This document shows, piece by piece, positions 5,601 to 31,110 of a stretch of DNA of 50,390 nucleotides. The translations under genes were made by a program, and so were the position numbers. Source of the DNA: a virus (Duplodnaviria > Caudoviricetes); IMG/VR virus record IMGVR_UViG_3300032318_000833, positions 1-50,390 of that record; one strand, given 5' to 3'. Below the pieces are notes generated by a model. It did no database searches. It had not been told where the DNA came from and was given only the letters and a program-made list of their open reading frames with translations. Positions within the stretch are counted from its first letter, which is position 1; the number at the start of each line of letters is the position of its first letter.

Positions 5601-7254
5601 GTCGCGCAGCCTCAGCAATTTGCTCAACCATCGCATCGTACTCAGCAGTAGTCCCATGTACTGCGCGAGATACTTCATCCAATGACAACCCGGCTTGAGT
5701 CGCCAATTCCTCAAAAGACTTAGTGCCAATCCCGAGGAAGCCGCCTAGTTCCTTTTGCAACAAATTAAAAATTGCAACTTCTTGGCTAGCCTTAGTTGCG
5801 GCACCAGTAACTTGATCAAGCGCGTCCTTGTATTGCATCGCTCTTGCTTCGGCATCTGCGCTACGACTAGAGAAAACTTCAAATGCGACAGATAGGCCAA
5901 TCATTGCCCACCCAATTGGCCCCAAAGACGCCATGAATCCCTTAATTGCAACGCCCATTGTGCGAAAAGCGCTCGCAACACCAACCGCCGCAGCCCTTGC
6001 TCCCGCAACTAATGCACCAAATTGTGTACGCGTTTTAATCATTTCTGCTTTAACCGTATTGCTAAAGCCAATGACCGACATTCGCATTTGAGAAAAAGAA
6101 GTGGCCAATGAAGTGCGTGCTTGCGCGGCCCCCGCAATTAATGCTTGACCCATTCTTGTACGAAGAATCAACAGTGCTGCGGCAGCAGCCATAATCGGGC
6201 CTGGAATCCCAGAAATTACTTTTGCTAGAAGATCAATTGCTGGAACCACTCCTTGAAGCAACTTGCCTAACAACGCTAATGCAGGAGCAAATACGGAACG
6301 CAACTCTCCGGCAATTGTCAAGATGCTTTTACCAATTGAGAGCAATTGCGGCAATAGTTCTTGGAAACCCTCTGCTAGTTGTGGCCCAAGGCTATCTTTT
6401 GCAGTATTAGCAAAGTCTTGCAACGACGGAATAATGTGAGTTTGAATAGCGCCAGCCACCGACTCGAACAATGGCAGCAACGCGAATCCTAGAGTCTCTT
6501 TAACCTCGCCCATTGATGCGCTAAGGCGAGTCATTGATGTTGCTGTCGCAGCAGCCGTGCCACCTACTTGCTTTTCGACCGCCCCCATAATGATTTCTTG
6601 AGCTTCGAAAAGACGGTTCGACTCAACAAGCGCCTTAATCTTTTCTTTCTCTTGCGCCGTGAAGGAAACGCCTTGGCGGCTCAACATGGTCAATCCGCGC
6701 AATGGGTCCTGCAAAGCGCGAGCAAGACTCCTAGCGTTACCCTCAACACTTCCGAACCCAGCGGCAGCAAGGTCTAGCGCGGCTGTAGTAGTTCTATCGA
6801 ACATCCCTCCGGCTTCACCAGCGGATGAGGCAACATCCTTAAAGGTAAGAATGATTGCTTGACCAGCCTTGATTACCTCATCGTCTACGCCAGTTTGCTT
6901 CATCAATGTATCGGCGTACTCTGTAAGCCTTTGAGTGGAGCCGCCCAATTCGGTTTGTAGCAAACCCATCGAACGAGAAATTGCTTCGATACGGCGATCA
7001 GCCAATTGGCTTTCTTGTGCTGCAGCAACAGCCTCTGTTGCAAAATCCTTAAGGGCTGTGCCAGCATTAGCAATACCAAGAACAGCCGCCGTTCCAAATG
7101 CTGCGCCCACAACACCCTTGAGCATTGTGAAAGAGCCAGCGACTTGCTTTACGCCCTTTTGAACATCCTGCATGGAGGATGCTGCTTTACGAACACCTGT
7201 TTGTAGGCTTGTTGTATCGGCAACAAACTTTGCGGTAACGACAGTTTCGCTCAT
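2629..7254 (-). CDS. tape measure protein
   Basis: 1541 aa, Ala-rich, helical/coiled-coil; follows tail assembly chaperone. Confidence 0.93.
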   Translation of the reverse strand: MSETVVTAKFVADTTSLQTGVRKAASSMQDVQKGVKQVAGSFTMLKGVVGAAFGTAAVLGIANAGTALKDFATEAVAAAQESQLADRRIEAISRSMGLLQTELGGSTQRLTEYADTLMKQTGVDDEVIKAGQAIILTFKDVASSAGEAGGMFDRTTTAALDLAAAGFGSVEGNARSLARALQDPLRGLTMLSRQGVSFTAQEKEKIKALVESNRLFEAQEIIMGAVEKQVGGTAAATATSMTRLSASMGEVKETLGFALLPLFESVAGAIQTHIIPSLQDFANTAKDSLGPQLAEGFQELLPQLLSIGKSILTIAGELRSVFAPALALLGKLLQGVVPAIDLLAKVISGIPGPIMAAAAALLILRTRMGQALIAGAAQARTSLATSFSQMRMSVIGFSNTVKAEMIKTRTQFGALVAGARAAAVGVASAFRTMGVAIKGFMASLGPIGWAMIGLSVAFEVFSSRSADAEARAMQYKDALDQVTGAATKASQEVAIFNLLQKELGGFLGIGTKSFEELATQAGLSLDEVSRAVHGTTAEYDAMVEQIAEAARQGQISSAESRQLSEALLEERQAIEAARIELEDKNKAEQAAAAATAAATSATVAAAIAAGEAAGPTQGLAMSIGGVGEAADEAADEINAMKAEYETWLSVTGQISAVDSAAAALEKIGTASVEFGTNLMGQTPKARSFRGEVVNAFEASAKAAQSLSDDLPTQRAIFTGELVKIVNSLKASGVKPKDIEAFLGAMDGLPASVSDIMRAAAQAIGDTDFKSDVEKAFDKSVKAGAPMTADAMEQLAEGASKSAKEKLGLTLEPELGGIIKSATTALRPTAFNNGELTGKSIGSGAAYGINQSSPIVIAAVERVMAAAKAAADAAVESKSPSRLFAQTGDNMVLGVAMGWLRMSPTLFRAIASIIPKAKGESGKLAKGMAEAFATSFRESGGSVAAAINDIFGSIPTKTPLEAQLGVKGAEKFVKDNKQALAALIELGEAIDRINEKVQYAGEAFTSLGELVARPFGRKSQISEMFGSEADIDSVIDGFLSIRDQVEQAYSVLTDASIVGAKAAARNRAEMQKTIGQLRALTSQAVQLREQYDTVMQELETLEKDYQKSIADTNAFYDAAEKKAEENIKAIEDRWASAIPGLEAALKGANEAFDKENAVLQNLISQRDEFVGQIKSGFRSFVNSLSFESRSASKQIVKETQRLANGITVTLERELEVGGGPAAIRQTLEERLAAVRDFSRNIRTLMQRGLDPALVQDFVSAGVAGAGEAAAALAAGSQEDLSAINAVQAQLLAETEDFGKYASAQWHDIGIAQQQAIVTPLEIARDAAQKALDDANALRDQELAAARKQLETLRSERKSALAAIDAAYNAEKSALQAQATAMQAEMDAVAAQIEQKILTMLNRTAAKSAEAGVKAGAGLLEGFRKEYPKVYDKLNRLMDQLASSLSRTATLTVQAVYDSTVPVRDAGARSGRSRAAFSPSASGVNVGTVSVPVAAPGAAAATTNNTYQITVNAGIGDPREIGRVTVEAIKAYERSNGRVFASA

Positions 7255-7256
7255 CG

Positions 7257-7801
7257 TTACCTACCTCTCTTGGCCTTCTTTGCCGCTTGCTCTTGCTCCC
7301 AAACGCGCAAATGCTCTAGTGCTATCCACTCAGTCAATTCTTGTGACGAGAGAGGACGGTGGCTTGGACCGCCATAAAGCAGTTCATCCACCGTCCTCCC
7401 AAGTCGTTGCGCTATTTCGAAGGCGAATCGTCGCTCGGGGTGTTGGAGGAATCTTTTCCCGCCGCGTCCTGCTCGTCCTTGCCGATGCCAGAAAGCCGAA
7501 GTCCGACATTAGCCAGTCGCTCAACTGCAGCGCTGGACTTTGCCAGGATTGCGTCCTTGTCTGCCGGGGTGAAAATCGGCTCGGTGCTTGTAGGGTCAAA
7601 CGCGCATGCCACGACAACATCTGGGTAAACGATGCTCATGTTCACTTGCTGAGTTGCCTGGTCAAACGCGTTTTGCATGAGAGTGATTCGATCACCCGCG
7701 CTCATCCCGCGAACAAGAATGTCAACTCCCCATTCGGGGATAGAGACAACCTCTGAGGGAATGTCCTGAGCAGCGAGGATCTTGTCACGCAAACCAGCCA
7801 T
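7257..7801 (-). CDS. tail assembly chaperone, long form (gpGT-like, -1 programmed frameshift)
   Basis: Slippery G GGA AAA at 7460-7454. The -1 frame reads RFLQHPERRFAFEIAQRLGRTVDELLYGG...SSQELTEWIALE...KRGR, stopping at 7257 just before the tape measure start. Confidence 0.85.
7412..7801 (-). CDS. tail assembly chaperone, short form (gpG-like)
   Basis: MAGLRDKILAAQDIPSEVVSIPEWGVDILVRGMS; lies between tail tube and tape measure; RBS GAAAGGA. Confidence 0.85.
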   Translation of the reverse strand: MAGLRDKILAAQDIPSEVVSIPEWGVDILVRGMSAGDRITLMQNAFDQATQQVNMSIVYPDVVVACAFDPTSTEPIFTPADKDAILAKSSAAVERLANVGLRLSGIGKDEQDAAGKDSSNTPSDDSPSK

Positions 7802-7856
7802 TACTGTTTCCTTTCGATTGGCCCACTAAGGGAACGTGGAATTAACTGACCGTGCG

Positions 7857-8285
7857 TCAGAACGTAGAGCCAGTAATAGCGCCCGTGACCTGGAGTTCCA
7901 GCGAGTACGTCACGACATCACCAACGGGACTGGAAACCTCGTAGGAAGTGATGAGCGCCTCGCCCGTGAACTTCGGCTGCGCGGATGCGGAGCCAGCGGG
8001 ACCATACTCAAAACTAATGGATGACACCGAACCGGACTTGAGGTTGGCGATGTTGCCTGCGATCTGCGTATCAACGGTGGAATCGAACATGCCGGAGAGC
8101 GAAATCGTGGCGTCACCAAGGCCCGTGATGTACGTCTTGTCGTTCTGTCCGAAAGCGGTGGTCTCCGCAGTCTCGATCTCACGAGGCATACTAATCTCGT
8201 TGAGCGTGTCGCTAATGTTCACCAAGGAACCGGTGGTTCCATCAAGGCGAAATTGGGCGTTCTTACCATGCTTGAAAGTGGGCAT
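7857..8285 (-). CDS. major tail (tube) protein
   Basis: 142 aa; ETAETTAFG..DKTYITGLGDATISLSG and YEVSSPVGDVVTYSLELQVTG fit a tube-protein pattern; upstream of chaperone. Confidence 0.8.
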   Translation of the reverse strand: MPTFKHGKNAQFRLDGTTGSLVNISDTLNEISMPREIETAETTAFGQNDKTYITGLGDATISLSGMFDSTVDTQIAGNIANLKSGSVSSISFEYGPAGSASAQPKFTGEALITSYEVSSPVGDVVTYSLELQVTGAITGSTF

Positions 8286-8287
8286 TA

Positions 8288-9007
8288 CTATCTCCTTGCT
8301 GCCGAAACGTGATAGGTGATGGAGCCGGAGGTTCCGGCGAGGGTATGCGTTGCACGGAGATATTGATTTACCGTGCCTGTGCTGGTAATGCTCTCTCCCG
8401 TCGTGGTTGACGCGGAGACAACTGTGAATGTAACTAGATCAGCCCATGTTGCGTTATCCGCTGAGTGCTGAACCTTAATGGTGGAGTTCCCATCTCTAGT
8501 GTTAGCGGTCAAGTGGAGGTTGAACAAGCCACCGCCGCTACTACTACCCGCATCATTGATCCCGGTGAGGGATGCTGACGTTCCAGTATTTGTCAGGGCA
8601 TTGAGAGCGCGACCTGAGAAAAGACCACCATCGGCTTGAACCTCCGCGCTAATGGCAACAACGTCGCCCACGGGGGATGAAACCTCATATGAGGTCAATT
8701 GCCCGTTAGCAATGATCGAGCGTGCGCCAGCGGTAGCGCCCTCAGGAAGCACTGTGAAAGTGTTATCTTCCTGTCCGATGGTTCCAGTAAGCACATCGTT
8801 AGATGCGTTAGCGGTTCCATCGAACAAGCCGCTAGTGGAGATCGTCCCATCGGCAAGACCAGTAATGTATGTCTTGTCGGTATCCGAAAACGTGGTTGTC
8901 TCAGCGGTTTCGATCTCTTGGCTTTGAGTAGCCTCATTGAGGAACGGACTCATATTCGTACCGTTAAGCAATACGACGGTGCGCTTGCCATGACGGAATG
9001 TAGGCAT
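8288..9007 (-). CDS. tail tube paralogue with C-terminal beta-rich extension
   Basis: First ~130 aa align by eye with 7857-8285 (MPTF[RK]HGK, EIETAETT, DKTYITGL, YEVSSPVGDVV); about 110 extra residues follow. Confidence 0.75.
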   Translation of the reverse strand: MPTFRHGKRTVVLLNGTNMSPFLNEATQSQEIETAETTTFSDTDKTYITGLADGTISTSGLFDGTANASNDVLTGTIGQEDNTFTVLPEGATAGARSIIANGQLTSYEVSSPVGDVVAISAEVQADGGLFSGRALNALTNTGTSASLTGINDAGSSSGGGLFNLHLTANTRDGNSTIKVQHSADNATWADLVTFTVVSASTTTGESITSTGTVNQYLRATHTLAGTSGSITYHVSAARR

Positions 9008-9210
9008 TACTTATCTCCCTTGTTAGGAGACTGTGGCTCACGGGATTTGGTGGGCTTCGGCGCATCTTGGTTGGGCAGCTCTGTAGTTGGCTCAATGATG
9101 CCTTGCTCTACCAACCAAGTAACACTTGATGCGGGAATGTCGTCCACAATGGCACCGGGTTCGGCACGCTTTCCTGCGTAATCAATGCCGACCACTACGC
9201 GGTGCTTCAT
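9007..9210 (-). CDS. small hypothetical protein, first gene of tail operon
   Basis: ATG 9210 with RBS AAGGAG; MKHRVVVGIDYAGKRAEPGAIVDDIP...WLVEQGIIEP. Confidence 0.65.
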   Translation of the reverse strand: MKHRVVVGIDYAGKRAEPGAIVDDIPASSVTWLVEQGIIEPTTELPNQDAPKPTKSREPQSPNKGDK

Positions 9211-9302
9211 CCCGCTCCTTAGGCATGGCAACCCCAGCCTCCGGGGGAACAAGTCCACGACGGGAGCGGGGCCACGGTGGACACGTTGCTACTTCTAGTT
9301 TA
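9211..9302 (-). promoter_or_regulatory. putative late promoter (-10 TAAACT) and structured 5' UTR of tail operon
   Basis: TAAACT on minus strand at 9302-9297; nested stems GCAAC/GTTGC (9289-9285 with 9232-9228), GTCCAC/GTGGAC and CCCC/GGGG. Confidence 0.45.
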
Positions 9303-9454
9303 CATGCAATAGCGAGTCTTTGAATGTCCTTTAACTGCGCCATTTTTTGCCCATTTGGGGATGATTTGGGCCCGAATCATTACCCCTTTTGGGGCCTTTC
9401 CCGGGGACCCCTAGGGGCCAAAAAACCTTTACAGCATAAGGGTTTTTTAGGTAC

Positions 9455-9483
9455 TTGACCCTACAGCCTGAGCCTGCTAGACT
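9455..9483 (+). promoter_or_regulatory. sigma70/SigA-type early promoter
   Basis: TTGACC (9455-9460), 17-nt spacer, TAGACT (9478-9483), at the start of the plus-strand block. Confidence 0.8.
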
Positions 9484-9489
9484 CTACCC

Positions 9490-10100
9490 ATAAGTGAATA
9501 GGGGTGGGGTTGAGGTTAGGTAAGGCCGAAACCGCGAAGCCATAGGTGCTAATGCAACTCAATGAAGATGCGAAGGACGTTGGGGCCGGGAGTGGTTCGC
9601 AGTGGTCAAGACACTAGCAGGTCGGCAAGTACCGGGACTCCTCATAAGACTCCTCCCCGTTGATGTTTGAGAATTGAATAGAGATGGATGACCTGCCAAG
9701 GAGTAGGCCACGCGACGCATGATGCAAGAAGATGCGCGGCAATTGGTGTAAAGCGGTGATGCTTGGGATTGCCAATTGTTACGGGAGCGGAAACAAGAGG
9801 AGTACGCAGGGCGTGGTGAAACTGCCTAGATTGAAGCAACGCACGGTGCAAAGCACCTAAGCCATTAGTAACGTAGCGAATTGTTAGTGGCAGCCGTCTA
9901 GTAGTAGCCAAGTAGCGCTTAAAGCGCGGGAGTCTGGTGGGGCTAGATGGTGGAAGCGCAATGTGGATGTCGATGGGCTGTAGTCCCCAAAGTAAAAAGT
10001 ACCGGGGAGGCAAGGTTCCATATCAGCGATGTGCTGGGTATCGAGCATGAATGAGAGAGACGTTCCTTTAGTCATGCTTGGTGCGGAGGGCATCGCCTCC
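9490..10100 (+). ncRNA. large structured ncRNA (ROOL/GOLLD-like ornate phage RNA; family unconfirmed)
   Basis: About 600 nt with no credible ORF. Stems with G-U pairs: 9501-9510/9649-9658, 9617-9623/9690-9696, 9738-9746/9772-9780, 9845-9857, 9861-9891, 9893-9902/9942-9951, 9955-9967/10017-10035, 10038-10050/10072-10084, 10085-10100. Confidence 0.75.
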
Positions 10101-10120
10101 AATAACGAAAGGGCAACGTA

Positions 10121-10441
10121 ATGGCAAGCAACAAGAAGATGTGCGACATGTTTGTTGTCGGTTGGAACATGCCCGGCTACTTGCCGGAGTCAGAGCCAGA
10201 GCGATTCCTTACTTGGATTGACGCCAAGATGCACCTAGCGATAACGCTTGATGATTGGTGCGAGGACGATTTGCAGTCAGTCGGTTGGGCACCAGCAACC
10301 GAGCAAGACGTTATCGCTTCGCAAATAGTCGATCGTTACGCCGAAGTGATCGACGCTGTCATTGCTAGCGATGGTCCGTCCTTCGCTATGGAGATTGCCG
10401 AGCAAAACGTTGTTGTTTGGATTGCACAGGAGGTTAAGTGA
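10121..10441 (+). CDS. hypothetical early protein
   Basis: ORF with start motif GAAAGGGCAAC; VGWNMPGYLPESEP segment. Confidence 0.7.
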   Translation: MASNKKMCDMFVVGWNMPGYLPESEPERFLTWIDAKMHLAITLDDWCEDDLQSVGWAPATEQDVIASQIVDRYAEVIDAVIASDGPSFAMEIAEQNVVVWIAQEVK

Positions 10442-10674
10442 TGTATTGGCGCAAAGAGCGTGACGATTACGGACGCACGGTGCATGCTTTAAAAGCAGAC
10501 ACGGGACGCACGCTAGGGGTTGTCGTCAAGCACCCGCTATTGAAGAAGGGCGACCCGAACGCCTATTGGTACAACAGATGGGATGTGCCATTTGACACTC
10601 CCGTCGAAATCAAGATCAAGCACTTCACCAACCTCAAAGACGCTAAGACCGCTTTGGAAGGGGCAACAAAATGA
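10438..10674 (+). CDS. hypothetical early protein
   Basis: RBS AGGAGG; 4-nt overlaps with both neighbours. Confidence 0.65.
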   Translation: MMYWRKERDDYGRTVHALKADTGRTLGVVVKHPLLKKGDPNAYWYNRWDVPFDTPVEIKIKHFTNLKDAKTALEGATK

Positions 10675-11099
10675 AGGATGTAACAGAACGCACAGCGAAG
10701 TTCGAGTTCCGCGGCATTGAGTGCATTGCAAAAGTCACCTACACCGATTACCGCAAGAGCGATTGGGACCCACGGCAAATGAAATTCTTGCAGTTCCGTA
10801 AGGAGCAAGAGAAGAAGTCGCGTCTTTACTACGGTGAGGATGGAGTAATGGATAAGGCATATGGTGATCACCCGCCTTACTCCGTTAAGGGAGACGACCT
10901 TGCTAACGACAAAGCGTGGCGTAAATACAACAAGATGGAGTCCGATCTTGCGCGAGCAGCGATTGATGCTGTGTTCCCCGAGTTTGGGAAGTCGTTGTTC
11001 TCGCGTAAGGCTGGTTGCTCTTGCCCTTGCTCGCCCGGATTCATTAGCAAGTCGCTTGTTGGTGGACAGGGTTGGATTCGGGTGACGCTTGTTGAGTAG
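10671..11099 (+). CDS. hypothetical early protein (FSRKAGCSCPCSPGF motif)
   Basis: RBS GAAGGGGCAAC; Cys motif; stop codon abuts hammerhead 1. Confidence 0.7.
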   Translation: MKDVTERTAKFEFRGIECIAKVTYTDYRKSDWDPRQMKFLQFRKEQEKKSRLYYGEDGVMDKAYGDHPPYSVKGDDLANDKAWRKYNKMESDLARAAIDAVFPEFGKSLFSRKAGCSCPCSPGFISKSLVGGQGWIRVTLVE

Positions 11100-11160
11100 T
11101 CGAAACCGCCGTGAGGCGGTCGCGTGGAATTAGCCACCCACGCCTGATGAGACAGGCTTA
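11099..11160 (+). ncRNA. hammerhead ribozyme type II, copy 1
   Basis: GTC-GAAA-CCGCC(GTGA)GGCGG-TC^-GCGTGG(loop)CCACGC-CTGATGA-GAC. Loop AGCC pairs with 3' tail GGCT; predicted cut after 11121. Confidence 0.92.
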
Positions 11161-11176
11161 ACGAAAGGGCAACGTT

Positions 11177-11569
11177 ATGCAGTCAAAAGTGTATGACCTT
11201 GGCACCATCCGGCTTGACGATGTGGCGCTGATCATTTCAGATGAAGTGCGTTACTACGAGCGAGCAATGTCCTACACGCATTACATCATCGACGACGAGT
11301 GCGTGCGATTGATCAATTACAATCGCCGTCGCATGACACGGCATCGTCTTATCGCTGCCCGTAAAGTTCAAGAAGCGTTGAATGATCCCGAGTCGCAGTA
11401 CTACGACATGACGACGTTTGACGCAACGCGGCGTTTGGCAGAAGCAGCCGAGTGGTACGGGCGTTGCATCGAATTGGTAACGCACTTTGTCCATTTGGAT
11501 AGGGAAGCGACAATTGCAAACATCAAGTTGGAGAACGCTCGCCGTGAGGCAAGGGGTTACGAAGACTAG
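11177..11569 (+). CDS. hypothetical early protein flanked by two hammerheads
   Basis: Start motif GAAAGGGCAAC; 130-aa ORF. Confidence 0.7.
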   Translation: MQSKVYDLGTIRLDDVALIISDEVRYYERAMSYTHYIIDDECVRLINYNRRRMTRHRLIAARKVQEALNDPESQYYDMTTFDATRRLAEAAEWYGRCIELVTHFVHLDREATIANIKLENARREARGYED

Positions 11570-11575
11570 CCGTTA

Positions 11576-11634
11576 GTCGAAACGCCGTGAGGCGTCGCGT
11601 AGACCTGACCACCTACGCCTGATGAGACAGGTCA
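11576..11634 (+). ncRNA. hammerhead ribozyme type II, copy 2
   Basis: GTC-GAAA-CGCC(GTGA)GGCG-TC^-GCGTAG(loop)CTACGC-CTGATGA-GAC. Loop TGACC pairs with tail GGTCA; cut after 11596. Confidence 0.92.
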
Positions 11635-11653
11635 TAACAGAAAGGGCAACGTC

Positions 11654-11977
11654 ATGGCTAGAACTAAGAAGGTAACGCAGCGTCAGGCTGATCGCGTGCT
11701 TCGTGCTGTCGCTGATTGGATGTACCAGCAGAACGGTTACACGCAGCCAATCCCTACTGGTGAGGATGCCGCATACAAGGGGCTTGGTCCGATGCTCAAC
11801 ATGACTTGGGATTGGCCTTCGTCTAGCCCAACGCCCACCGTCTTGCTTGAGGGTGGGCCGGAGGAGTGGGCGGTTCGTTGCTGCCAGTACGTTCAAGAGT
11901 TGATGGACGCTCGCAAGATTCCCGTGTTCGTTGAGCCGTACGCATCGTATGCGCTTTGCATCTACAGGGAGGACTAA
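11654..11977 (+). CDS. hypothetical early protein
   Basis: Start motif GAAAGGGCAAC; 107-aa ORF. Confidence 0.7.
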   Translation: MARTKKVTQRQADRVLRAVADWMYQQNGYTQPIPTGEDAAYKGLGPMLNMTWDWPSSSPTPTVLLEGGPEEWAVRCCQYVQELMDARKIPVFVEPYASYALCIYRED

Positions 11978-11980
11978 GCA

Positions 11981-12196
11981 ATGGCAAAAGCATGGGACGT
12001 TGTCGCATACACCGCGGACGGAGATATCTATTGCCCACGTTGCGCCGTTGTGCGTTACAGCACTTGGATTGAGAAGACCGACGTTCCAGACCATGAGGGC
12101 AACAACATCATGGCGGTTTTTGCTTCCGATCCACATAAAGGTGAAACATGCGGGGGTTGTCTTGCCCCGATCTACATTAGCGAAAGGGTTAGGTGA
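11981..12196 (+). CDS. small Zn-binding hypothetical protein
   Basis: CPRC and CGGC pairs; RBS GGAGG. Confidence 0.65.
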   Translation: MAKAWDVVAYTADGDIYCPRCAVVRYSTWIEKTDVPDHEGNNIMAVFASDPHKGETCGGCLAPIYISERVR

Positions 12197-12459
12197 TCGT
12201 GATGGACCGTGTAATGACACCGCGCGTTGCAGGATTGATCGACGCAGCGAAAGACCTTGTTGTGCAGGCTATGTATGAGGGGTCGCACATTCAACGACAA
12301 GAACCTGCGCCAGTTGAGGGTACTCCTTGGGATCGTCCCGACTTGCCTAATGGTGCGTTGGTGATGTTGGTGAACATCCAACACGACCTAGAGGTTTTGC
12401 TTGCCACTCATTTTGCAGGCCAAACCCCGGAGCGTCCCGGTACTTGGGTCGCAACGTGA
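12193..12459 (+). CDS. hypothetical protein
   Basis: Overlapping start/stop with neighbours. Confidence 0.55.
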   Translation: MIVMDRVMTPRVAGLIDAAKDLVVQAMYEGSHIQRQEPAPVEGTPWDRPDLPNGALVMLVNIQHDLEVLLATHFAGQTPERPGTWVAT

Positions 12460-12614
12460 ACATCAACATTCGTTGGGTGCAATCGAAGCCTGAGGATTGG
12501 GTTGATTACCCAAGCGATTGCGCGAACTGCAATCGTCCAATGAACTGCCTTTACAAGCAAGAGAGTGGGGCTTACTTCTGCTCCACTTGCCATTACAAGA
12601 AGGAGGGGAAATGA
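12456..12614 (+). CDS. small Zn-finger-like protein (52 aa)
   Basis: Hand-translated MNINIRWVQSKPEDWVDYPSDCANCNRPMNCLYKQESGAYFCSTCHYKKEGK; GTGA and ATGA overlaps at the two ends. Confidence 0.6.
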   Translation: MNINIRWVQSKPEDWVDYPSDCANCNRPMNCLYKQESGAYFCSTCHYKKEGK

Positions 12615-12817
12615 ACATCAAGGAGATTGGCGTGGGTTTCTTTACACGCCCAACTATTGATTCATTGCGTGAGTTGCTTGATCGGCTTGAGCGTGAGGGT
12701 TGGAGCGCCGACCAACAAATCCAAGTGATCCAGTTGGGGAACAAGCCGGAAGCGTTTGTCATCCAGGCTGTTGAGGAGTGGCTTGGTTCAAGTGAGCCAC
12801 CCATTCGTCGCTACTAG
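12611..12817 (+). CDS. hypothetical protein
   Basis: RBS AAGGAGG, ATG 12611; stop abuts hammerhead 3. Confidence 0.6.
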   Translation: MNIKEIGVGFFTRPTIDSLRELLDRLEREGWSADQQIQVIQLGNKPEAFVIQAVEEWLGSSEPPIRRY

Positions 12818-12880
12818 TTCGAAACCTCGCTTCGGCGGGGTTGCATGGAATTGACCAACCATGCCTGACGAGATAGGTCA
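12817..12880 (+). ncRNA. hammerhead ribozyme type II, copy 3
   Basis: GAAA-CCTCGC(TTCG)GCGGGG-TT^-GCATGG(loop)CCATGC-CTGACGA-GAT. Loop TGACC pairs with tail GGTCA; GUU cleavage triplet, cut after 12842; stem II is weak. Confidence 0.82.
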
Positions 12881-12895
12881 TAGCGAAAGGGCAAT

Positions 12896-13186
12896 GTGAT
12901 GCTAGAAGAAAACAAGAAAGAACTGTACGCGTTAGTTCTTGCTCACATGGAACGTTACGGGCAAGACTTGACAGAGCATCGTATTTGGGATGCGCACGAT
13001 GGTCGCCCAGATGGAACGCTAGTCACCAACGACAACCTTCACCTTTTCCGTCAATTCCGTAACACCATCAGCAGTTCGCCTCGCGTCATGGTGCATGCCG
13101 CATTGGAATCAAGAAATCAATTCGATGCCGTGTTCCCCGATCCCAACATTACGCCATATGACATCCCGAAGAAGGTGGAGCGATGA
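12896..13186 (+). CDS. hypothetical protein
   Basis: Start motif GAAAGGGCAA. Confidence 0.6.
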   Translation: MMLEENKKELYALVLAHMERYGQDLTEHRIWDAHDGRPDGTLVTNDNLHLFRQFRNTISSSPRVMVHAALESRNQFDAVFPDPNITPYDIPKKVER

Positions 13187-13434
13187 ACGACGAGATTGTT
13201 AAGTACGACTTGACATTAGGTCGGCCTGTCAATGGCATTGAGATGATTGAGGTGCGACGTATCGCGCGACCATACATTGTTGACAAGGCAGGGCGTCGGC
13301 AATGGATGAAAGAACATTCGCAAGAGGACCGCGAGGTTCTAATGACAATCCCGTTCACCGACGTTCCTGCTTTGCTACAAGCAGTAGCGGAATGGGCGGC
13401 ATGGCATATGTCGCCTACTCCATTGAAGGATTGA
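13183..13434 (+). CDS. hypothetical protein
   Basis: ATGA overlap; RBS GGTGGAG. Confidence 0.6.
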   Translation: MNDEIVKYDLTLGRPVNGIEMIEVRRIARPYIVDKAGRRQWMKEHSQEDREVLMTIPFTDVPALLQAVAEWAAWHMSPTPLKD

Positions 13435-13436
13435 TG

Positions 13437-13649
13437 ATGATGATTGAGTTTCATTACGAAAATGATTATGGCGTCTCCGTTGTGTTCAAGTGGAATCGCA
13501 GCCAGACCATCAACCTCTACGTCAATGGTGTGGAGAGCGAGTCGTTCACGTTGCTCCATGCCGATGTGATGAAGGTGATGGAGTGGTGCGATGACATGGC
13601 AGACGATGTGATGACGCGGTTGGTCGATGAGTTGGGCGACCAAGCCTAG
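13437..13649 (+). CDS. hypothetical protein
   Basis: RBS GAAGGA; start among tandem ATGs at 13434-13440. Confidence 0.55.
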   Translation: MMIEFHYENDYGVSVVFKWNRSQTINLYVNGVESESFTLLHADVMKVMEWCDDMADDVMTRLVDELGDQA

Positions 13650-13702
13650 GAGGGGTCGTCCCCCATGGCGGTATGAGGTCATGGGGGATTCCCCCCTTGG
13701 GG

Positions 13703-13807
13703 CGATCTGGGCGATTCTGGGGGGTCAACATGGGGGGATGGGTACCATTATGGCCCCTATGGGGGTCTGCTCCCCCAACAACCCCCAGATTGCCCCTGAG
13801 GGGGAGG
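13703..13807. repeat. dispersed ~105-bp G-run element, copy A (intergenic)
   Basis: Shares CGATCTGGGCGATTCTGGGGG...ATGGGGG...GGGTACC...CTATGGGGG...CCCCCA...CAGAT[T/A]GCCCCTG with 19774-19877. Confidence 0.75.
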
Positions 13808-13950
13808 CCCATAGCCCGAATCATTTGGGGATGGGGTCCCGGCCCTATGGCCTTTGGTCGCTCAATTGCCGTGGCTATTGGCGTGGAATTGCTATTGGAC
13901 AACACACCAAATGCCATTGAGCGTACAGTCGTTGGCTGCTACTTTCTTGC

Positions 13951-14020
13951 TATCGAAACCTTGCCCATGCAATTGGGCGGGTCCATCGGGGATCGCCTCC
14001 CGATGCTGAGGAGATAGGCG
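13951..14020 (+). ncRNA. hammerhead ribozyme type II, copy 4
   Basis: TATC-GAAA-CCTTGCCCA(TGCAAT)TGGGCGGG-TC^-CATCGGG(loop)CCCGATG-CTGAGGA-GATA. Loop CGCC pairs with tail GGCG; cut after 13983. Confidence 0.88.
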
Positions 14021-14038
14021 GCAGAAGAAAGGGGCAAC

Positions 14039-14365
14039 ATGCCTTGGTTGAACAAGCGATTCGTAGATGACATCGCCGGAGAGGTCGATGCTCTACGATC
14101 CAGCGTTGATCCAGTAACAAAGCAGTTTGTTGAGGGGTATGACCGTGCAGTCGGCAACCCCGACTACTTCCGCTTTAGGGGTAGGGGTGAGCAGATTGAT
14201 CTCCCTATCGGTGAGGACGCCTACCCCTTGATGGAAAGTATCGCGCTTAACCGCGTGTCCTATTGGGATGACGCACTTGCTAGCGCACCCGACCCGATGC
14301 GCAAGGACATTTGCCGTCGGGGCATTAGGCGATCCAAGAAGGTAGCCGCACGATTCAAGAAGTGA
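14039..14365 (+). CDS. hypothetical protein
   Basis: Start motif GAAAGGGGCAAC. Confidence 0.65.
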   Translation: MPWLNKRFVDDIAGEVDALRSSVDPVTKQFVEGYDRAVGNPDYFRFRGRGEQIDLPIGEDAYPLMESIALNRVSYWDDALASAPDPMRKDICRRGIRRSKKVAARFKK

Positions 14366-14370
14366 CGTTG

Positions 14371-14408
14371 GGTGTAGGCCTTACCTCAATTGGGGTAGGG
14401 CTTACACC
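14371..14408 (+). other. 17-bp intergenic hairpin
   Basis: GGTGTAGGCCTTACCTC-AATT-GGGGTAGGGCTTACACC with three G-U pairs and no U-tail; lies just before the GAAAGGGCAA start motif. Confidence 0.65.
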
Positions 14409-14429
14409 GTCAATCGAAAGGGCAAGCAA

Positions 14430-14645
14430 ATGTCAATGGATATGGGGCACTACTACGACAACGAGACAGACCGCTGCATCGACTGTGATTGCAGGCCGTG
14501 GGGTCGTTGGGCAAAACTCCCGTGCGGGATTGACCCTAAGACGGTTGATATCTCGCAAGGCAACGTGCAGGCGCATAGCGATGAGTTCTTCAAGGGGTTC
14601 ATTGAGTACGCAATGATCAAGGCTGCGCTTGAGGGTGACAAGTGA
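14430..14645 (+). CDS. small Cys-containing hypothetical protein
   Basis: Start motif GAAAGGGCAA; CIDCDC...PCG. Confidence 0.6.
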   Translation: MSMDMGHYYDNETDRCIDCDCRPWGRWAKLPCGIDPKTVDISQGNVQAHSDEFFKGFIEYAMIKAALEGDK

Positions 14646-14688
14646 GGGCACGTTACGGTGACGCAATCGTTGATATCAAGGAGGAATC

Positions 14689-14793
14689 GTGAGACTCACA
14701 AAACGCGGAGAGATCGTTCTAGCCACCGTCGCAACAATCGTCCTACTCGCAATGATGGGAATTGCCGGATGGGTGGAAGGAGGAATGCAGTGA
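14689..14793 (+). CDS. small membrane peptide (34 aa)
   Basis: RBS AAGGAGG; MRLTKRGEIVLATVATIVLLAMMGIAGWVEGGMQ. Confidence 0.6.
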   Translation: MRLTKRGEIVLATVATIVLLAMMGIAGWVEGGMQ

Positions 14794-14849
14794 TTGATCC
14801 AGAAGACGATGACGACGATTACGGTGACGGCGTTGTTTACGTTTGACTA

Positions 14850-14905
14850 GGTCGAAACCCCGTGAGGGGTCCGGTACTGAATGGTGCCGCTGACGAGACC
14901 GTCAG
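14850..14905 (+). ncRNA. hammerhead ribozyme type II, copy 5
   Basis: GGTC-GAAA-CCCC(GTGA)GGGG-TC^-CGGTAC(TGAATG)GTGCCG-CTGACGA-GACC. CTGA can pair with tail TCAG; cut after 14871. Confidence 0.9.
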
Positions 14906-19270: not shown

Positions 19271-20257
19271 ATGACCGAGGATAGCAGAGTGGTCGCCGAA
19301 AGGGGACCTTTTGAGATGGTTCCGCATTGGTTGTTGCACGACCTAGAAGTAAATGCGCTAGCCATTCGGCTGTACCTAGTGTTACGTCAACATGCTAATG
19401 CTCAAGGTACTTGTTTCCCCAGTCGGCAACGCCTATGCGATTTGCTTGGCGTTTCGTTACCGACATTGGATAAAGCCCGTGAGCAATTGGTTCACGCCGG
19501 AGCATTGACGATACGCAAGAGAAAGGATGCTGCAAACCAATGGGCGTCGTCGTTGTATGTCGTACATTGGGAGAAGCAAGATTTTTATGCACGGGCTACC
19601 AAGTTTTTTGATGAGGGTCATCAAGAATCTTCTATACGAACTAATACCCACTTAACTAAGACAAGTACTACTACTCCACTACAGCAAACTAATTTGCCTA
19701 CCGCTCCGGATGGGGCCAATGGTGTCGATTCCCACCCCGGCATGGGGGGCAAGGGGGACCTATGCCCCAGGCCCGATCTGGGCGATTCTGGGGGACCAGA
19801 TATGGGGGAGGGTACCCATGGGGGGACTATGGGGGACCGACCCCCCAGCGGCCTTCAGATAGCCCCTGGGAGGGGGGTCGATATCCCCGATTCCCCGATC
19901 AACCCGACCCAAAAGGGGAGGCAAGGATGGACCGTAAATGGCACTCACCCCGCATCATTTGATGACTTTTGGCGTGCGTATCCACGGCGAGCAGGCAAGA
20001 AGGCTGCGCTACAAGCGTGGCTTGCTGCGATCCGTGAAGCCGATGCAGATTGCATCGTGGAAGCCGCAAGACGTTACTCAAATGATCCGAATAGAGAACC
20101 ACGATTCACACCGCATCCCGCTACTTGGCTACGTCAAGGACGTTGGGATGATGAACCATTACCCTCGCGTTCGACTGGCGCAGCAGGCCAGCGACGAATG
20201 GACGCGTATCAAGATATCTATAACAAGATCAATCAACGAAAGGGCATCGAACAATGA
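19271..20257 (+). CDS. replication initiator (N-terminal HTH, phage O/Rep-like)
   Basis: LYLVLRQHA...CFPSRQRLCDLLGVS HTH; C-terminal FDDFWRAYPRRAGKKAA...HPATWLRQGRWDDE; low-complexity linker. Confidence 0.8.
   Translation: MTEDSRVVAERGPFEMVPHWLLHDLEVNALAIRLYLVLRQHANAQGTCFPSRQRLCDLLGVSLPTLDKAREQLVHAGALTIRKRKDAANQWASSLYVVHWEKQDFYARATKFFDEGHQESSIRTNTHLTKTSTTTPLQQTNLPTAPDGANGVDSHPGMGGKGDLCPRPDLGDSGGPDMGEGTHGGTMGDRPPSGLQIAPGRGVDIPDSPINPTQKGRQGWTVNGTHPASFDDFWRAYPRRAGKKAALQAWLAAIREADADCIVEAARRYSNDPNREPRFTPHPATWLRQGRWDDEPLPSRSTGAAGQRRMDAYQDIYNKINQRKGIEQ
19774..19877. repeat. dispersed G-run element, copy B (inside initiator gene; candidate origin)
   Basis: Homologous to 13703-13807; ATGGGGG occurs four times in 19742-19835. 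Confidence 0.7.
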
Positions 20258-22191: not shown

Positions 22192-22442
22192 TGAATAATG
22201 AGTTTCCTACGCATGTGTTCGTGGCACCGGCTAATTACACGCCGGAACCGACTATTGCCGTAACGCCAACGATTGTTGACCAGATGGATAGCATCGAGGT
22301 CGCTGCTTACCTTGGTATCACGACCAACAACCTTCGACAGATGGTCTTCAAGAAGAAGTTGCTTCCGTCAGGCAAGAACGGGCGACGGCTTGTGTTCAAT
22401 AAGTCTGACGTTATTGCATTTGCGGAGGGCAGGAATAAGTGA
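22191..22442 (+). CDS. HTH DNA-binding protein
   Basis: EVAAYLGITTNNLRQMV...GRRLVFNKSDV. Confidence 0.75.
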   Translation: MNNEFPTHVFVAPANYTPEPTIAVTPTIVDQMDSIEVAAYLGITTNNLRQMVFKKKLLPSGKNGRRLVFNKSDVIAFAEGRNK

Positions 22443-23053
22443 GCGACGCGCTAAAGATCGAAAAGGTTAAGTGCGCTGCCCTAAAGACTGACCCGCAAAA
22501 CGCTCGCAAGCATTCGGAGCGTAACATCAAGGTAATTGCTAGCAGCCTTGCATCGTTCGGGCAGCGACGACCCCTTGTCGTTTGGAACGACACCATTATC
22601 GCGGGTAATGGAACACTAGAGGCAGCACAGTCACTTGGCTGGACGGACGTTTTCATTACGCGCGTCCCCGCCGATTGGACAGAAGATCAAGCCCGAGCAT
22701 TTGCGCTTGCCGATAATCGATCATCCGAACTTGGGGATTGGGATTCCGAACTCCTTGCTAGCCAGTTGATCGCTCTTAACGACACAGGTTTCGAGATTGA
22801 AGACATTGGCTTCTCCCTTGACCTTGACAATGATGACTACAACCCTTCCGGCTTCCTTGACGACATTGATCCTGGGGTTCCAAAGACTGACTCCGACTTC
22901 GGGGATAAGGACAAGTATTCGCTTCCGTACGGTTTTGATTCTGACCAACGCGAAGTAATCATTGCGGCGATCAATCATGCAAAGAAGTTGTATTCGATTG
23001 AGGCTCCGCAAGCCCTAACGCATATCGCTAAGTGCTACTTGGATTCTCCGTAG
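22439..23053 (+). CDS. ParB/Srx-like N-terminal domain protein
   Basis: DPQNARKH, SLASFGQRRPLVV, IIAGNGTLEAA, ALADNRSSEL. Confidence 0.85.
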   Translation: MSDALKIEKVKCAALKTDPQNARKHSERNIKVIASSLASFGQRRPLVVWNDTIIAGNGTLEAAQSLGWTDVFITRVPADWTEDQARAFALADNRSSELGDWDSELLASQLIALNDTGFEIEDIGFSLDLDNDDYNPSGFLDDIDPGVPKTDSDFGDKDKYSLPYGFDSDQREVIIAAINHAKKLYSIEAPQALTHIAKCYLDSP

Positions 23054-23074
23054 TAGGAAGGAGCCGAAGCCTCA

Positions 23075-24316
23075 ATGGGAAAGATGATTCGCAAGAAAAA
23101 AGAAGTAGACCGTAACGTTTACGAAATGGCTAAAGAGCGAGTAGCGCACGCGTTCGACATTTTCGATGAGATCGTAGTGTCATTCTCAGGCGGTAAAGAC
23201 TCAACTACCGTTTTGGAACTTGTGCTTGAAGAAGCAGAGAAGCGTGATCGTCTACCGCAACGCGTGGTCTTTTTCGATGAGGAAGCGATCCCTTGGCAAA
23301 CGGTCGAATACGTTGAGCGACGTAGGCAAGATCCGCGTATCAAACTAGAGTGGTACTGCGTATCCTTGCCATGTCGTAACGCTTGTGCGCGGGATGAGTC
23401 ATATTGGTACCCATGGAATCCTGACGAGAAGGACAAATGGGTTCGACCATTGCCGGAGCATGCAATCACTTCGCATCCGTTGATTGACGATTTGCCGTTA
23501 GAGAAGCGTCCCGGTTGGGCAACATTTGCAGACTTCCTTGGTAACGGAAAAGGATCAACGGCATTTGCGCTTGGTATCCGCGCTGATGAGTCGCTTGGTC
23601 GATACATGCAAGTGGCTAAGCGAGAGAAAGATAATTGGATCATCAACCTTCGGCCCGGCGTAGCCAAGGTTCTTCCGATCTATGACTTCCGCACCGAAGA
23701 TGTGTGGACTGCGCCTGCCATGTTTGGTTGGGATTACAATCGCGCCTACGACATTCTTGAAATGCTCGGCATTAGCCCGTCGCAACAGCGTTGCGCCCCG
23801 CCATACGGCGAGGAGCCGATGCAGAAACTTTGGGTGTTTCGTGAGGGATTCCCTGAGATTTGGGACAAGATGGTTTACCGCGTTCCCGGCGCAGCAACAG
23901 CGGCGCGTTACTCCAATACAGAGTTGTATGCGTTCAATGATCGCCTTGAGAAGCCTGTCGATATCTCGTGGAAGGACTACATCTACGAGTTGGCTGGCGG
24001 GTTGGAGGAAAAGTCTCGCGGTAAGGCTATCTACACAATTCGCACCATGATTAATGGTCACTACAAGGCTGTATCTACTCCGATCATGGAAGATAGCGCG
24101 CACCCTCGCGGCGGCGTGACTTGGCAAATCATTGGGAAGATCGCCATGCGAGGAGACGACAAGGGAAGGAAAGCGCAAATGGCGCGGCACTTCTCCGACC
24201 CAAGCAAGCCAGACTTTGAGCCAATGCTCAAGAAGTACAACAATGAACTAGACAATGTGACCAGGGCTGGACGGCTTTGGGAGTTTGAGTTGGAGAATAA
24301 TAATGGGGAAGCCTGA
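23075..24316 (+). CDS. PAPS-reductase-family protein (IbrA/YbdN, DUF3440-like)
   Basis: PP-loop VSFSGGKDS, FFDEE, GIRADES, PIYDF..EDVW, YNRAYD, QRCAPPYG. Confidence 0.88.
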   Translation: MGKMIRKKKEVDRNVYEMAKERVAHAFDIFDEIVVSFSGGKDSTTVLELVLEEAEKRDRLPQRVVFFDEEAIPWQTVEYVERRRQDPRIKLEWYCVSLPCRNACARDESYWYPWNPDEKDKWVRPLPEHAITSHPLIDDLPLEKRPGWATFADFLGNGKGSTAFALGIRADESLGRYMQVAKREKDNWIINLRPGVAKVLPIYDFRTEDVWTAPAMFGWDYNRAYDILEMLGISPSQQRCAPPYGEEPMQKLWVFREGFPEIWDKMVYRVPGAATAARYSNTELYAFNDRLEKPVDISWKDYIYELAGGLEEKSRGKAIYTIRTMINGHYKAVSTPIMEDSAHPRGGVTWQIIGKIAMRGDDKGRKAQMARHFSDPSKPDFEPMLKKYNNELDNVTRAGRLWEFELENNNGEA

Positions 24317-24812
24317 CGATCATCCTTTGTCTAAAGTTGAATGGGTTGATCCAAAAAAGTTGAGGGCAAATAACTACAATCCGAACAAGGTCGCACCGCC
24401 CGAAATGAAATTGCTCAAGTTGAGCATTATGGAAAACGGTTGGACGCAGCCAATTGTGGCGCACCCGGACGGCGAGATCGTTGACGGGTTCCATCGTTGG
24501 ACACTAGCGTCGCAGGATAAGCAAGTTGCTGCGCTCGCTGGTGGGCTTTGCCCCGTAGTGCGATTGAAGATTAACGAGAGCGATTCGCGTCTTGCGACAA
24601 TTCGCCACAATCGCGCACGCGGCTCGCATTACGTCGTTCAAATGTCCAATATTGTTATTGATCTTTTGGAGGCTGGACTGTCGGAAGATGAAATCAGCAA
24701 GCGACTTGGCATGGAACCTGAGGAGGTTCTGCGCCTAAAGATGCGAGGAGATTCCATTGCGCGCAAAGCCAAGAAAGACTTCAACAACGGCTGGGTACCT
24801 GGGGATAAGTAA
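24303..24812 (+). CDS. ParB-like protein (IbrB/YbdM-like)
   Basis: ANNYNPNKVAPPEMKLLKLSI..GWTQPIV, IVDGFHR, TIRHNRARG. Confidence 0.88.
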   Translation: MGKPDDHPLSKVEWVDPKKLRANNYNPNKVAPPEMKLLKLSIMENGWTQPIVAHPDGEIVDGFHRWTLASQDKQVAALAGGLCPVVRLKINESDSRLATIRHNRARGSHYVVQMSNIVIDLLEAGLSEDEISKRLGMEPEEVLRLKMRGDSIARKAKKDFNNGWVPGDK

Positions 24813-28015: not shown

Positions 28016-29552
28016 CGAGATACTAAGGGCAACCCCGGAGCAACGCCGTAAGTTATTTGCTGCAGCGACCCCGGAGCAAAAGTTCGCGCTCCGTAAAATC
28101 TTGTCCGATAGGGCAAGCAATCCTTGGCTTCGTTTTGAGGACGATCCAGTATCTTTCGTTACTAAAGGTATTGGTGAGGACGTTTGGTCTAAGCAGATAG
28201 AGATTCTTGAAAGCGTCCGTGACAATAAGCGAACTGCGGTTCCGGCTTGTCACGCTCCGGGTAAATCGCATATTGCTGCTCGTATTGTGGCGTGGTGGAT
28301 TACGTCGCATCCGATTGGTACAGCCCGTGTCGTTACTACCGCGTCGTCATACCGTCAGGTCAAGAACATCCTTTGGGCGCACATCCGTAGATTGCATGCC
28401 GCTCATGGCATGGTTGGGGAAGTGTTTACGGCGAATTGGCAAGTAGACGGGATTGTTGTTGCGGACGGGTTCTCCCCCGCTGATCATAATGAAACCGCGT
28501 TGCAGGGTATCCACGCTGAGCATTTATTGGTCGTGGTTGATGAGGCTGGCGGTATTAGCCAAACAATCGGAACCGCGCTTGAAGCACTAATGACTGGTGG
28601 GCATACACGCTTGCTTGTTTTGGGTAACCCTCCGACCGATAATCAAGGCTCTTGGTTTGAGCGTACATGCAATAGCGACCTCTACAACGTTATTCCAATC
28701 CCCGCTTTCGATACGCCCAACTTCACGGGCGAACATGTAGGTAAGTGGGGACACAACCTTGTAGATCATGAATGGGTTGATGAAGTTATTCGCGAGTTCG
28801 GGGAGGAATCGCCGTTTGTACAAGCCCGTGTGTTTGCTCGATTCCCGCGCAACACAACTAACGTTACGCTTCCGATTACTTGGCTAGAGAACGTTGTTAC
28901 CGACGAGTACCAATTGGAAGGGGCTATTCGCCTAGGGGTTGATGTTGCTGCGGAAGGCGGCGACGAGTTTGTTGTAGCGCGTTTCGACGGCGACCTAGGG
29001 CGAGTAATGCACGCTTCCGCGTACTCGCGTACTGCGGTGGAAGTATCTGGAATTGTGCTAGAGCATATACATGAAGCAGAGAAAGACCAACAATCGCGTG
29101 GGATAGCGGAGCCAGTCCGCGTGAAAGTGGACAGTATCGGCTTGGGGTGGGGTGTTGTAGGCCTTTTGGAGGAATGGGGTAAAGAGGGACGCCACCATTC
29201 CACAATCGTTCCTGTGAACGTCGCAGAGAGAGCGCACGATAACAACAAGTTCGTGTCCCAAAAAGCCGAGATGTGGTGGACGATGCGGCAAATGATCCAA
29301 CCTGATGAAACTGGCAGGGTTGGCATAATGCTAGACGTTGATCGCAAGACTGTAGCGCAATTGACTGGACCCACCTACAAGACTAATAGTTCGGGCAAAA
29401 TTCAAATCGAATCTAAAGTCGATATGAAACGCCGAGGATTGAATAGCCCTGATCGCGCTGAGGCGTTATTGTTAGCGTTGTTTGAGCCGCCAGAAAAGAC
29501 TATCCCTAATGTTGCTCCGTTGAGCATCACACAAACAAGCGGGTGGATATGA
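28008..29552 (+). CDS. terminase large subunit
   Basis: Walker A variant CHAPGKS, Walker B VVVDEA, LGNP, nuclease LGVDVA and SPDRAEA. Confidence 0.92.
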   Translation: MLDEILRATPEQRRKLFAAATPEQKFALRKILSDRASNPWLRFEDDPVSFVTKGIGEDVWSKQIEILESVRDNKRTAVPACHAPGKSHIAARIVAWWITSHPIGTARVVTTASSYRQVKNILWAHIRRLHAAHGMVGEVFTANWQVDGIVVADGFSPADHNETALQGIHAEHLLVVVDEAGGISQTIGTALEALMTGGHTRLLVLGNPPTDNQGSWFERTCNSDLYNVIPIPAFDTPNFTGEHVGKWGHNLVDHEWVDEVIREFGEESPFVQARVFARFPRNTTNVTLPITWLENVVTDEYQLEGAIRLGVDVAAEGGDEFVVARFDGDLGRVMHASAYSRTAVEVSGIVLEHIHEAEKDQQSRGIAEPVRVKVDSIGLGWGVVGLLEEWGKEGRHHSTIVPVNVAERAHDNNKFVSQKAEMWWTMRQMIQPDETGRVGIMLDVDRKTVAQLTGPTYKTNSSGKIQIESKVDMKRRGLNSPDRAEALLLALFEPPEKTIPNVAPLSITQTSGWI

Positions 29553-30565: not shown

Positions 30566-31101
30566 GACAACGGATCGACTAGTTCTACCAATCGGTAATG
30601 TTGCGGATCATTCTCAGACCACCCCAGGTTCATGTGAACTGTGGAGGACTGGTTTGAGACATTTACGAACCGCATAACATAAACCGTATTGTCGCGCAGG
30701 GTGTGAATCTTCTGCTTCGTGATATCACCACCAGCCTTAGCAGTATTACCGACCAGTTCGGAAGCGATAGGTGTTCCTCCTGTGACCGCGCTAGCAGCGG
30801 ATAATGATGCCGCAGCGGTGTCGGGGAACTTCCTATTAAGGTTCCTTGGGGTGATGTAGTTGTACTGCGTCACCGTAGCGGGAGCCTCTAGTAGTGTCGC
30901 TTGGATCTCCCCCCGGTCGCTAGCGATGTAATAGAACTGAAACTCGACTTCAGCGTCGTTAGTGTCAATCGCAAAGTACACAGAAGCACCAGCCTCGACG
31001 GTGAAAAACTGATTCATCAAGTAGACGAGTCCACGCTTGGCTAGGCCATCAGGTTCAGTCGCTGCCTGTTGATATGTGCGCTTCTGCCAGTAGTTTGCCA
31101 C
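30562..31101 (-). CDS. hypothetical beta-rich protein
   Basis: 179-aa ORF; leaderless pattern TAGAAT-6 nt-GTG. Confidence 0.65.
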   Translation of the reverse strand: MANYWQKRTYQQAATEPDGLAKRGLVYLMNQFFTVEAGASVYFAIDTNDAEVEFQFYYIASDRGEIQATLLEAPATVTQYNYITPRNLNRKFPDTAAASLSAASAVTGGTPIASELVGNTAKAGGDITKQKIHTLRDNTVYVMRFVNVSNQSSTVHMNLGWSENDPQHYRLVELVDPLS

Positions 31102-31110
31102 GTTCCTATT

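Follow-up and report, generated by a model that had tools for sequence, protein, structure and literature searches.

The stretch analyzed here, which we call the window, is the whole 50,390-nt record IMGVR_UViG_3300032318_000833. By gene content it is an uncultured siphophage, about 85% complete. Its host probably belongs to the Actinomycetota, because the genome carries a WhiB gene and its capsid protein is closest to those of Arthrobacter phages (the nearest matches, Ottawa and Kharcho, stand at 60.6% identity). Close strains of the phage are present in freshwater and wastewater sequencing runs. Matches to a ParB-like nuclease, a PAPS-reductase-like protein, several glycosyltransferases and a nucleotide-sugar epimerase (22439-24812, 29543-32756 and 45448-48396) hint at a possible modification of DNA or virion.

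The locus is a divergent gap. The tail operon runs leftward from about 9210, the early arm runs rightward from 10121, and the gene upstream of the RNA is a divergent tail-operon gene. A preliminary description of this DNA had read the gap as an ornate non-coding RNA of about 600 nt made from the early promoter. The features are as follows, all on the plus strand.

9455..9483, +, sigma-A-type early promoter, TTGACC-17-TAGACT with an extended -10 TG, found by sequence scan
9490..9663, +, variable 5' leader with putative start site, from strain differences
9521..9626, +, optional segment of about 105 nt with approximate ends, from the X2 loose end, X6 joint and X3 contig
9637..9803, +, predicted domain 1 with a closing helix of 7 bp, 9637-9643/9797-9803 (p 0.86)
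9664..9681, +, rRNA-type boxA element, 18 nt, matching actinobacterial rrn leaders
9692..9707, +, hairpin (p 0.88); in the homologue 9695/9704 changes from G-U to A-U
9738..9780, +, two-tier hairpin; double changes 9742/9776 and 9751/9764 in the homologue
9861..9891, +, 11-bp hairpin; double change 9863/9889 in the homologue
9893..9951, +, nested three-stem domain (p 0.95-0.99); double change 9897/9947 in the homologue
9955..10035, +, predicted nested domain, from structure prediction
10038..10100, +, 13-bp hairpin and 5-bp hairpin (p 0.99 and 0.88), no U tract
10103..10123, +, ribosome-binding cassette that runs into the start of the first early ORF; belongs to repeat family D1 (95% to 11159-11179)
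10121..10441, +, first early ORF; no PHROG, relatives at 95% and 59% identity
11098..11161 (core 11101), +, type II hammerhead 1; Rfam RF02276, 37.0 bits, cut-off 37
11578, 12820, 13954 and 14853 (within 11576..14897), +, four more hammerhead cores, one at E 0.011

The consensus-like promoter of the preliminary description is present and its grammar recurs in the tail-gene relatives L013 and L015-L018, though by scan alone such sites are no more frequent than expected (3 sites in 8 kb versus 6.2 in shuffles). The strain changes listed for it lie in the spacer or shift the -10 closer to consensus. The absence of a credible ORF from the 600 nt also holds: the longest plus-strand ORF wholly within 9490-10120 is 42 aa, and a 123-aa minus-strand ORF that overlaps the RNA is frameshifted in a diverged homologue. 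No terminator was called directly after the RNA, where the hairpins of 10038-10100 have no U tract; in the predicted fold these are likely its 3' boundary. Terminator-like sites are not enriched in 6000-14000 (9 versus 8.8 expected).

Downstream, five type II hammerhead cores each precede a near-identical ribosome-binding cassette, and only the first reaches the Rfam cut-off. Its predicted cut, placed by motif near 11121, would end the first piece of the transcript. The cassette at 10103-10123 is near-identical to the one behind hammerhead 1, and no hammerhead lies directly after the RNA in this phage. Clustered type II hammerheads are known in prophage operons (PMC3088659). The present early operon likewise has five cores, each ahead of a ribosome-binding site; that work describes the ribozymes and is not known to mention a large leader RNA in front of them. 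Two small genes may be fused in the first early ORF, because X2 and X6 have 95 additional letters upstream of 10148 and its two protein relatives start about there.

A short conserved motif with inverted ends at 9255-9290, which 25 of 52 relatives carry upstream of their tail operon, is a possible late promoter or operator. A second non-coding gap (13650-13945), rich in G and C runs, resembles 9340-9430, and at its end lies a second promoter-like site at 13917, followed by a hammerhead. The plus strand of 13190-13660 folds very strongly (z -5.07), with long imperfect hairpins over two small ORFs.

A boxA element and a conserved core

The preliminary description overlooked the boxA at 9664-9681. 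It is identical at 16 of 18 positions to the rrn leaders of all three Micrococcaceae (Arthrobacter-like) compared, at 13-14 of 18 to those of three other Actinomycetota, and at 12 of 18 to an E. coli element that fits the published boxA consensus (PMC5725501). A profile of the six leaders places its top match in the window exactly here (19.0 bits versus at most 18.2 in 20 shuffles); the window served as probe in choosing the leader sites, but a search among the leaders alone returns the same element as their most conserved 18-mer. At 9674, the changes in the strains and in the homologue bring back the rrn letter. We consider it probable that the boxA is functional. In E. coli boxA nucleates the Nus complex, a chaperone of rRNA folding (PMC8632103), and a putative boxA motif is also present in mycobacterial rrn leaders (PMC10218544). 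As in an rrn leader, the 18-nt element comes after a promoter, at a distance of about 175 nt, and is followed by a folded RNA that is not translated; the phage, however, uses it before a non-ribosomal RNA and without a supported leader-trailer helix. A 14-bp candidate for such a helix (9656-9669/9964-9977) was rejected as broken in the homologue, as was a predicted hairpin over the boxA, broken at 9674 in X3 and X6. The boxA pattern was found at seven loci in viral contigs, with the likeness confined to boxA, and once in genomes, inside a Treponema gene.

The strains divide the RNA into two parts. Four runs, found by words of the stretch, were compared (X4, X5, X7 and X9-X21 were left out); none of the runs listed for the stretch is an RNA run, and X8 is probably DNA. 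Across the close strains 9691-10106 varies less than the neighboring genes. X2 differs at 10 of 402 positions in 9705-10106 versus 39 of 553 in the next ORFs (Fisher p 0.0016), and X3 at 12 of 411 positions of the RNA stretch versus 32 of 439 in the downstream ORFs (Fisher p 0.005), an excess of conservation that is biased upward because the runs were picked by words of the stretch and their contigs may mix strains. The comparison indicates that the RNA stretch is under purifying selection.

Further upstream, 19 of 149 places differ in X2 (9372-9520), and X6 has 56 letters in place of 9509-9666. A loose end in X2 fits the same short form as X6, without about 9521-9626, while one contig of X3 spans the long form. 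These short and long forms are why we describe the element as a variable leader followed by a conserved core. As the strains delimit it, the core is about 440 nt (9664-10100); the whole leader is about 610 nt and the short strain form about 505 nt, all with unmapped ends. A uniform 600-nt ornate unit is not supported; the structure in evidence is one of hairpins and a few multi-stem domains. The strain table lists 40 of 160 differing places, from contigs that may come from different strains. Its ten core changes include one compensatory pair of changes, 9871/9881 (A-U to G-C in X2 and X3, a terminal pair with p 0.34 only), two more that keep a pair, two at unpaired positions and four that lose a pair, one of the four inside the boxA. 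X3 also has a 1-nt deletion at 9971.

Evidence for structure from a diverged homologue

Folding thermodynamics by itself is no proof of a structured RNA here. The folding energy of the whole region is unremarkable (z -1.13 versus shuffles). The z-score is -2.07 for 9630-10105, -4.07 for 9980-10099 and -2.7 for the core, the last equalled or beaten by 3 of 14 control windows. Watson-Crick helices of at least 7 bp number 8, versus 6.2 +/- 2.8 in 40 shuffles. Several parts of the preliminary description are nevertheless borne out by the predicted fold. It had counted at least nine stems, and more than nine helices are predicted; it had argued that G-U pairs favor the plus-strand RNA, and these make up 27 of 167 pairs on the plus strand versus 9 of 119 on the minus strand. 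Its nested domains at 9893-9951 (p 0.99) and 9955-10035 (outer helix p 0.84) are predicted too, but not as folding beyond chance. The proof of a structured RNA comes from comparison.

The covariation comes from one diverged relative. A search with the 123-aa antisense ORF returned a single protein cluster (P0001, P0004), 67% identical over 73 aa, which beyond those 73 residues continues into a different reading frame of the window. The cluster is a diverged copy of the RNA that was wrongly called as a gene. A codon-aware alignment covers 9661-9990 with a score of 180 versus 48-61 for three shuffles. The homologue's letters were deduced through amino-acid constraints and represent one homologous lineage; among the 159 letters that could be fully determined, 120 match. 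Five of the six indels are not multiples of three, so a conserved reading frame, which would have spoken against an RNA, is not what the homologue keeps.

The covariation count covers 48 predicted pairs in 9685-9960 for which both positions are informative, excluding the boxA hairpin and the ragged end; the 3' 140 nt lie outside this span. Sixteen of these pairs are touched. There are four double changes (9742/9776, 9751/9764, 9863/9889 and 9897/9947), and all four pair. Simulations with an equal number of changes give a mean of 0.4, with P<=0.001 at three transition rates. Among the single changes six keep the pair, three have a free partner and three lose it (9894, 9895 and 9919), versus 5-7 lost in simulation; the excess of kept over lost pairs is not significant (P 0.05-0.20). 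The two-tier hairpin at 9738-9780 has four of the pair-keeping single changes and two more with a free partner, and none lost. All three pairs scored as lost belong to the domain at 9893-9951, where 9897 is also unpaired in X2. The inner 3-bp helix of 9955-10035 is broken at 9993 in X2, X3 and X6, and the helix closing domain 1 retains its 5' arm in the short strain form. The double changes indicate that three hairpin domains are selected as RNA structure, and we are highly confident, on these comparative grounds, that a real structured non-coding RNA lies on the plus strand.

The pseudoknot suggested earlier does not survive. The 7-bp complementarity GCAGGTC/GACCTGC (9617-9623/9690-9696) exists, but it is one of eight such helices where about six are expected. 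Its pairing probability is 0.007 in a nested ensemble, a weak test for a pseudoknot. Its 5' arm lies in the segment absent from strains X2 and X6, and the homologue change at 9695 suits the local hairpin 9692-9707 instead. The same change tells against a helix 9681-9697/10009-10024, which is also absent from the ensemble. The supported structure is one of hairpins and nested domains, from an alignment that is shallow for other pseudoknots, with its one homologue lineage.

Further homologues were sought widely. None was found by blastn of phages and plasmids, among the protein-anchored loci, or by blastn and nhmmer against the other 385 loci. Exact-pattern scans gave 12 matches in viral contigs and 61 in metagenome contigs, none of which extends, and 100 chosen virus records searched whole gave only 17-26-nt matches. 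The 3' antisense ORF has no protein match.

Known families and the slot in related phages

The preliminary description had seen a likeness to ROOL in size and architecture and offered a divergent member or a new class in an actinobacterial phage. A new RNA outside Rfam stands; membership in ROOL or GOLLD does not. No Rfam family matches the RNA region at gathering, or 9200-10300 at E<=10. This includes ROOL (RF03087, gathering cut-off 99.1 bits); the ROOL model run alone was also blank, a weak test whose controls gave no signal. GOLLD (RF02032, a model of the conserved 3' domain) gave no match at E<=10, in a test whose controls gave a weak signal in 5 of 14, and manA (RF01745) none in five records, the window's own included. 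ROOL has a mean length of 581 nt (PMC5737381) and an architecture of six junctions and three pseudoknots; many GOLLDs exceed 800 nt (PMC12286853); both are often near tRNA genes and form RNA-only nanocages, as 8-mer and 14-mer. The present RNA shares with ROOL that it is large, phage-borne, non-coding and covarying, and is of similar length if the whole leader is counted (PMC5737381, PMC12286853), but it matches no model, has no tRNA nearby or supported pseudoknot, and opens an early operon, behind a boxA, with a conserved core of about 440 nt. With GOLLD it shares a freshwater phage setting and a conserved 3' part after a variable 5' part (PMC12286853); it differs in lacking a model match and a tRNA island and in being much shorter. 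No tRNA gene was found in the 50,390-nt window, from a record about 85% complete. We do not file the RNA under either family because the model tests fail and the tRNA context is missing. A search of the literature by title and beginning of abstract found no description of it; six of its short motifs are absent from six supplementary files of PMC10690425, though the RNA may be among that paper's candidates. By these comparisons this boxA-led early phage RNA is a new family, known from one lineage.

None of the 52 tail-gene relatives has this RNA. Among the 20 nearest whose flanks are long enough, an unrelated RNA occupies the same slot in 11 records (6 distinct sequences), and 9 are without it. 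The sister RNA is about 250-320 nt, covaries in 20 of 67 pairs, has a type II hammerhead directly behind it and has no Rfam match; its model matches strongly at 13 of 62 pattern loci. The same boxA 20-mer is present in Arthrobacter Amigoviruses (Amigo, Anansi, Molivia), ahead of a different covarying RNA of about 300 nt, with double changes in 14 of 36 pairs, in the early promoter gap before rightward genes; it too has no Rfam match.

L001:5263-5510, L004:1558-1837, L007:444-761, L011:410-652 and kin, -, sister-slot RNA behind an early promoter
L180, L181, L184:1195-1510 and L275:2580-2890, +, Amigovirus boxA and RNA

Homology to either was rejected: the two models (R1 from six sister-slot sequences, R2 from four Amigovirus sequences) score at most 2.5 bits in 9490-10110 with filters off. 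Because the sister RNA is present in 11 and absent in 9 of the 20 relatives, the slot appears to be a swappable accessory position, behaving like the accessory early genes around it. The hammerhead directly behind the sister RNA would free it.

What the RNA may do

Our leading reading, held tentatively and at somewhat less than even confidence, is an accessory early RNA gene that would be transcribed in the manner of rRNA and yield a free product acting in trans. Transcription, Nus loading, release and the trans role are all inferred. Host polymerase would start near 9490, making the RNA the first product in infection. The boxA would load the host Nus complex, which would shield the 630-nt untranslated stretch from Rho and let the RNA fold as rRNA does. 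Hammerhead 1 would cut the early message near 11121, and either 3'-to-5' trimming or an endonuclease would shorten the piece as far as the hairpins at 10038-10100, leaving a stable RNA. This RNA could then serve as a decoy or scaffold that binds host proteins while the cell is taken over; a decoy is the most likely trans role, a candidate suggested by context. The RNA may instead remain the 5' leader of a 1.6-kb message, because neither a hammerhead nor a U-tract terminator directly follows it.

The rival we take most seriously, though we think it unlikely, is a cis antiterminator in which boxA and folded RNA ride the polymerase through the early arm of about 20 kb, as with HK022 put or conAn2. 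The RNA comes first in its operon, has a boxA and is followed by no terminator, and large RNA antiterminators are known to head long operons (PMC8191782; PMC9378689). Like conAn2 and put, it is a folded RNA with which a long operon of a mobile element begins. However, the terminator-like sites it would have to overcome are not enriched, the promoter-like site at 13917 offers a second start, and sister phages cut their slot RNA off by hammerhead or do without one. The likeness to conAn2 and put is also limited by the boxA, by the lack of an Rfam match and by the hammerheads that follow the analogous sister RNAs. In the conAn system the gene for a partner processivity protein lies directly upstream. 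We rank action in trans above this because the slot is swappable and its sister occupant is cut free. It is improbable, in our opinion, that the RNA is simply a structured 5' leader that stabilizes the first hammerhead-bounded message (three small ORFs) or sets its translation. The RNA does adjoin the ribosome-binding cassette directly and the first cut lies 1 kb downstream, but a core of 440 nt whose conservation exceeds that of the ORFs it is supposed to serve goes far beyond the needs of stability, and the ribosome-binding site is unpaired in the predicted folds.

We are still more doubtful of a cage-forming RNA like ROOL or GOLLD, either a divergent member or a convergent multimer. The whole leader of about 610 nt is near the ROOL mean (PMC5737381), the RNA is phage-borne and its modest folding z-scores are compatible, but to the failed models and missing tRNA must be added that no pseudoknot or kissing loop is supported and that the 5' third is dispensable in strains. 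A replication origin in the divergent gap, acting as DNA or through a primer RNA, is very improbable. Mycobacterial prophages do have RNA-based origins (PMC7157519), and the cumulative GC skew turns near 7.8-9.6 kb. Against this, the skew follows the coding strand, covariation with G-U pairs indicates an RNA, and even the sister RNA is missing from 9 of 20 relatives. The RNA origin of cluster A mycobacteriophages comes with adjacent parABS and no RepA-like initiator, and neither applies here: the phage has its own initiator gene (19271-20257), the 61 proteins scanned include no ParA or integrase, and the ParB-like matches are 12 kb away. As for a 123-aa antisense protein, the 67% match of one gene-call cluster speaks for it, but that was one match among 12 candidates, the homologue switches frame into another window ORF and X3 has its 1-nt deletion at 9971; these frameshifts largely refute it and we give it almost no credence.

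A broader idea, which we offer as speculative and rather doubtful, is that the first-transcribed position is a slot for RNA genes, where unrelated folded RNAs, made like rRNA with the help of boxA and cut free by a ribozyme or nuclease, would be swapped like accessory early proteins and act as RNA-only effectors of takeover or counter-defense, this RNA founding one family. GOLLD and ROOL have structures but no assigned function; the new family sits in a context that can be read: an early promoter, a host rRNA boxA, a swappable slot and a hammerhead-cut operon. The Arthrobacter Amigoviruses are a cultured analogue, in which it can be tested whether such an RNA acts in cis or in trans and what boxA contributes. 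In one prophage record (L183, minus strand, behind 1200), with no Rfam match at gathering, the same boxA stands before a tRNA-like element that ends in CCA.
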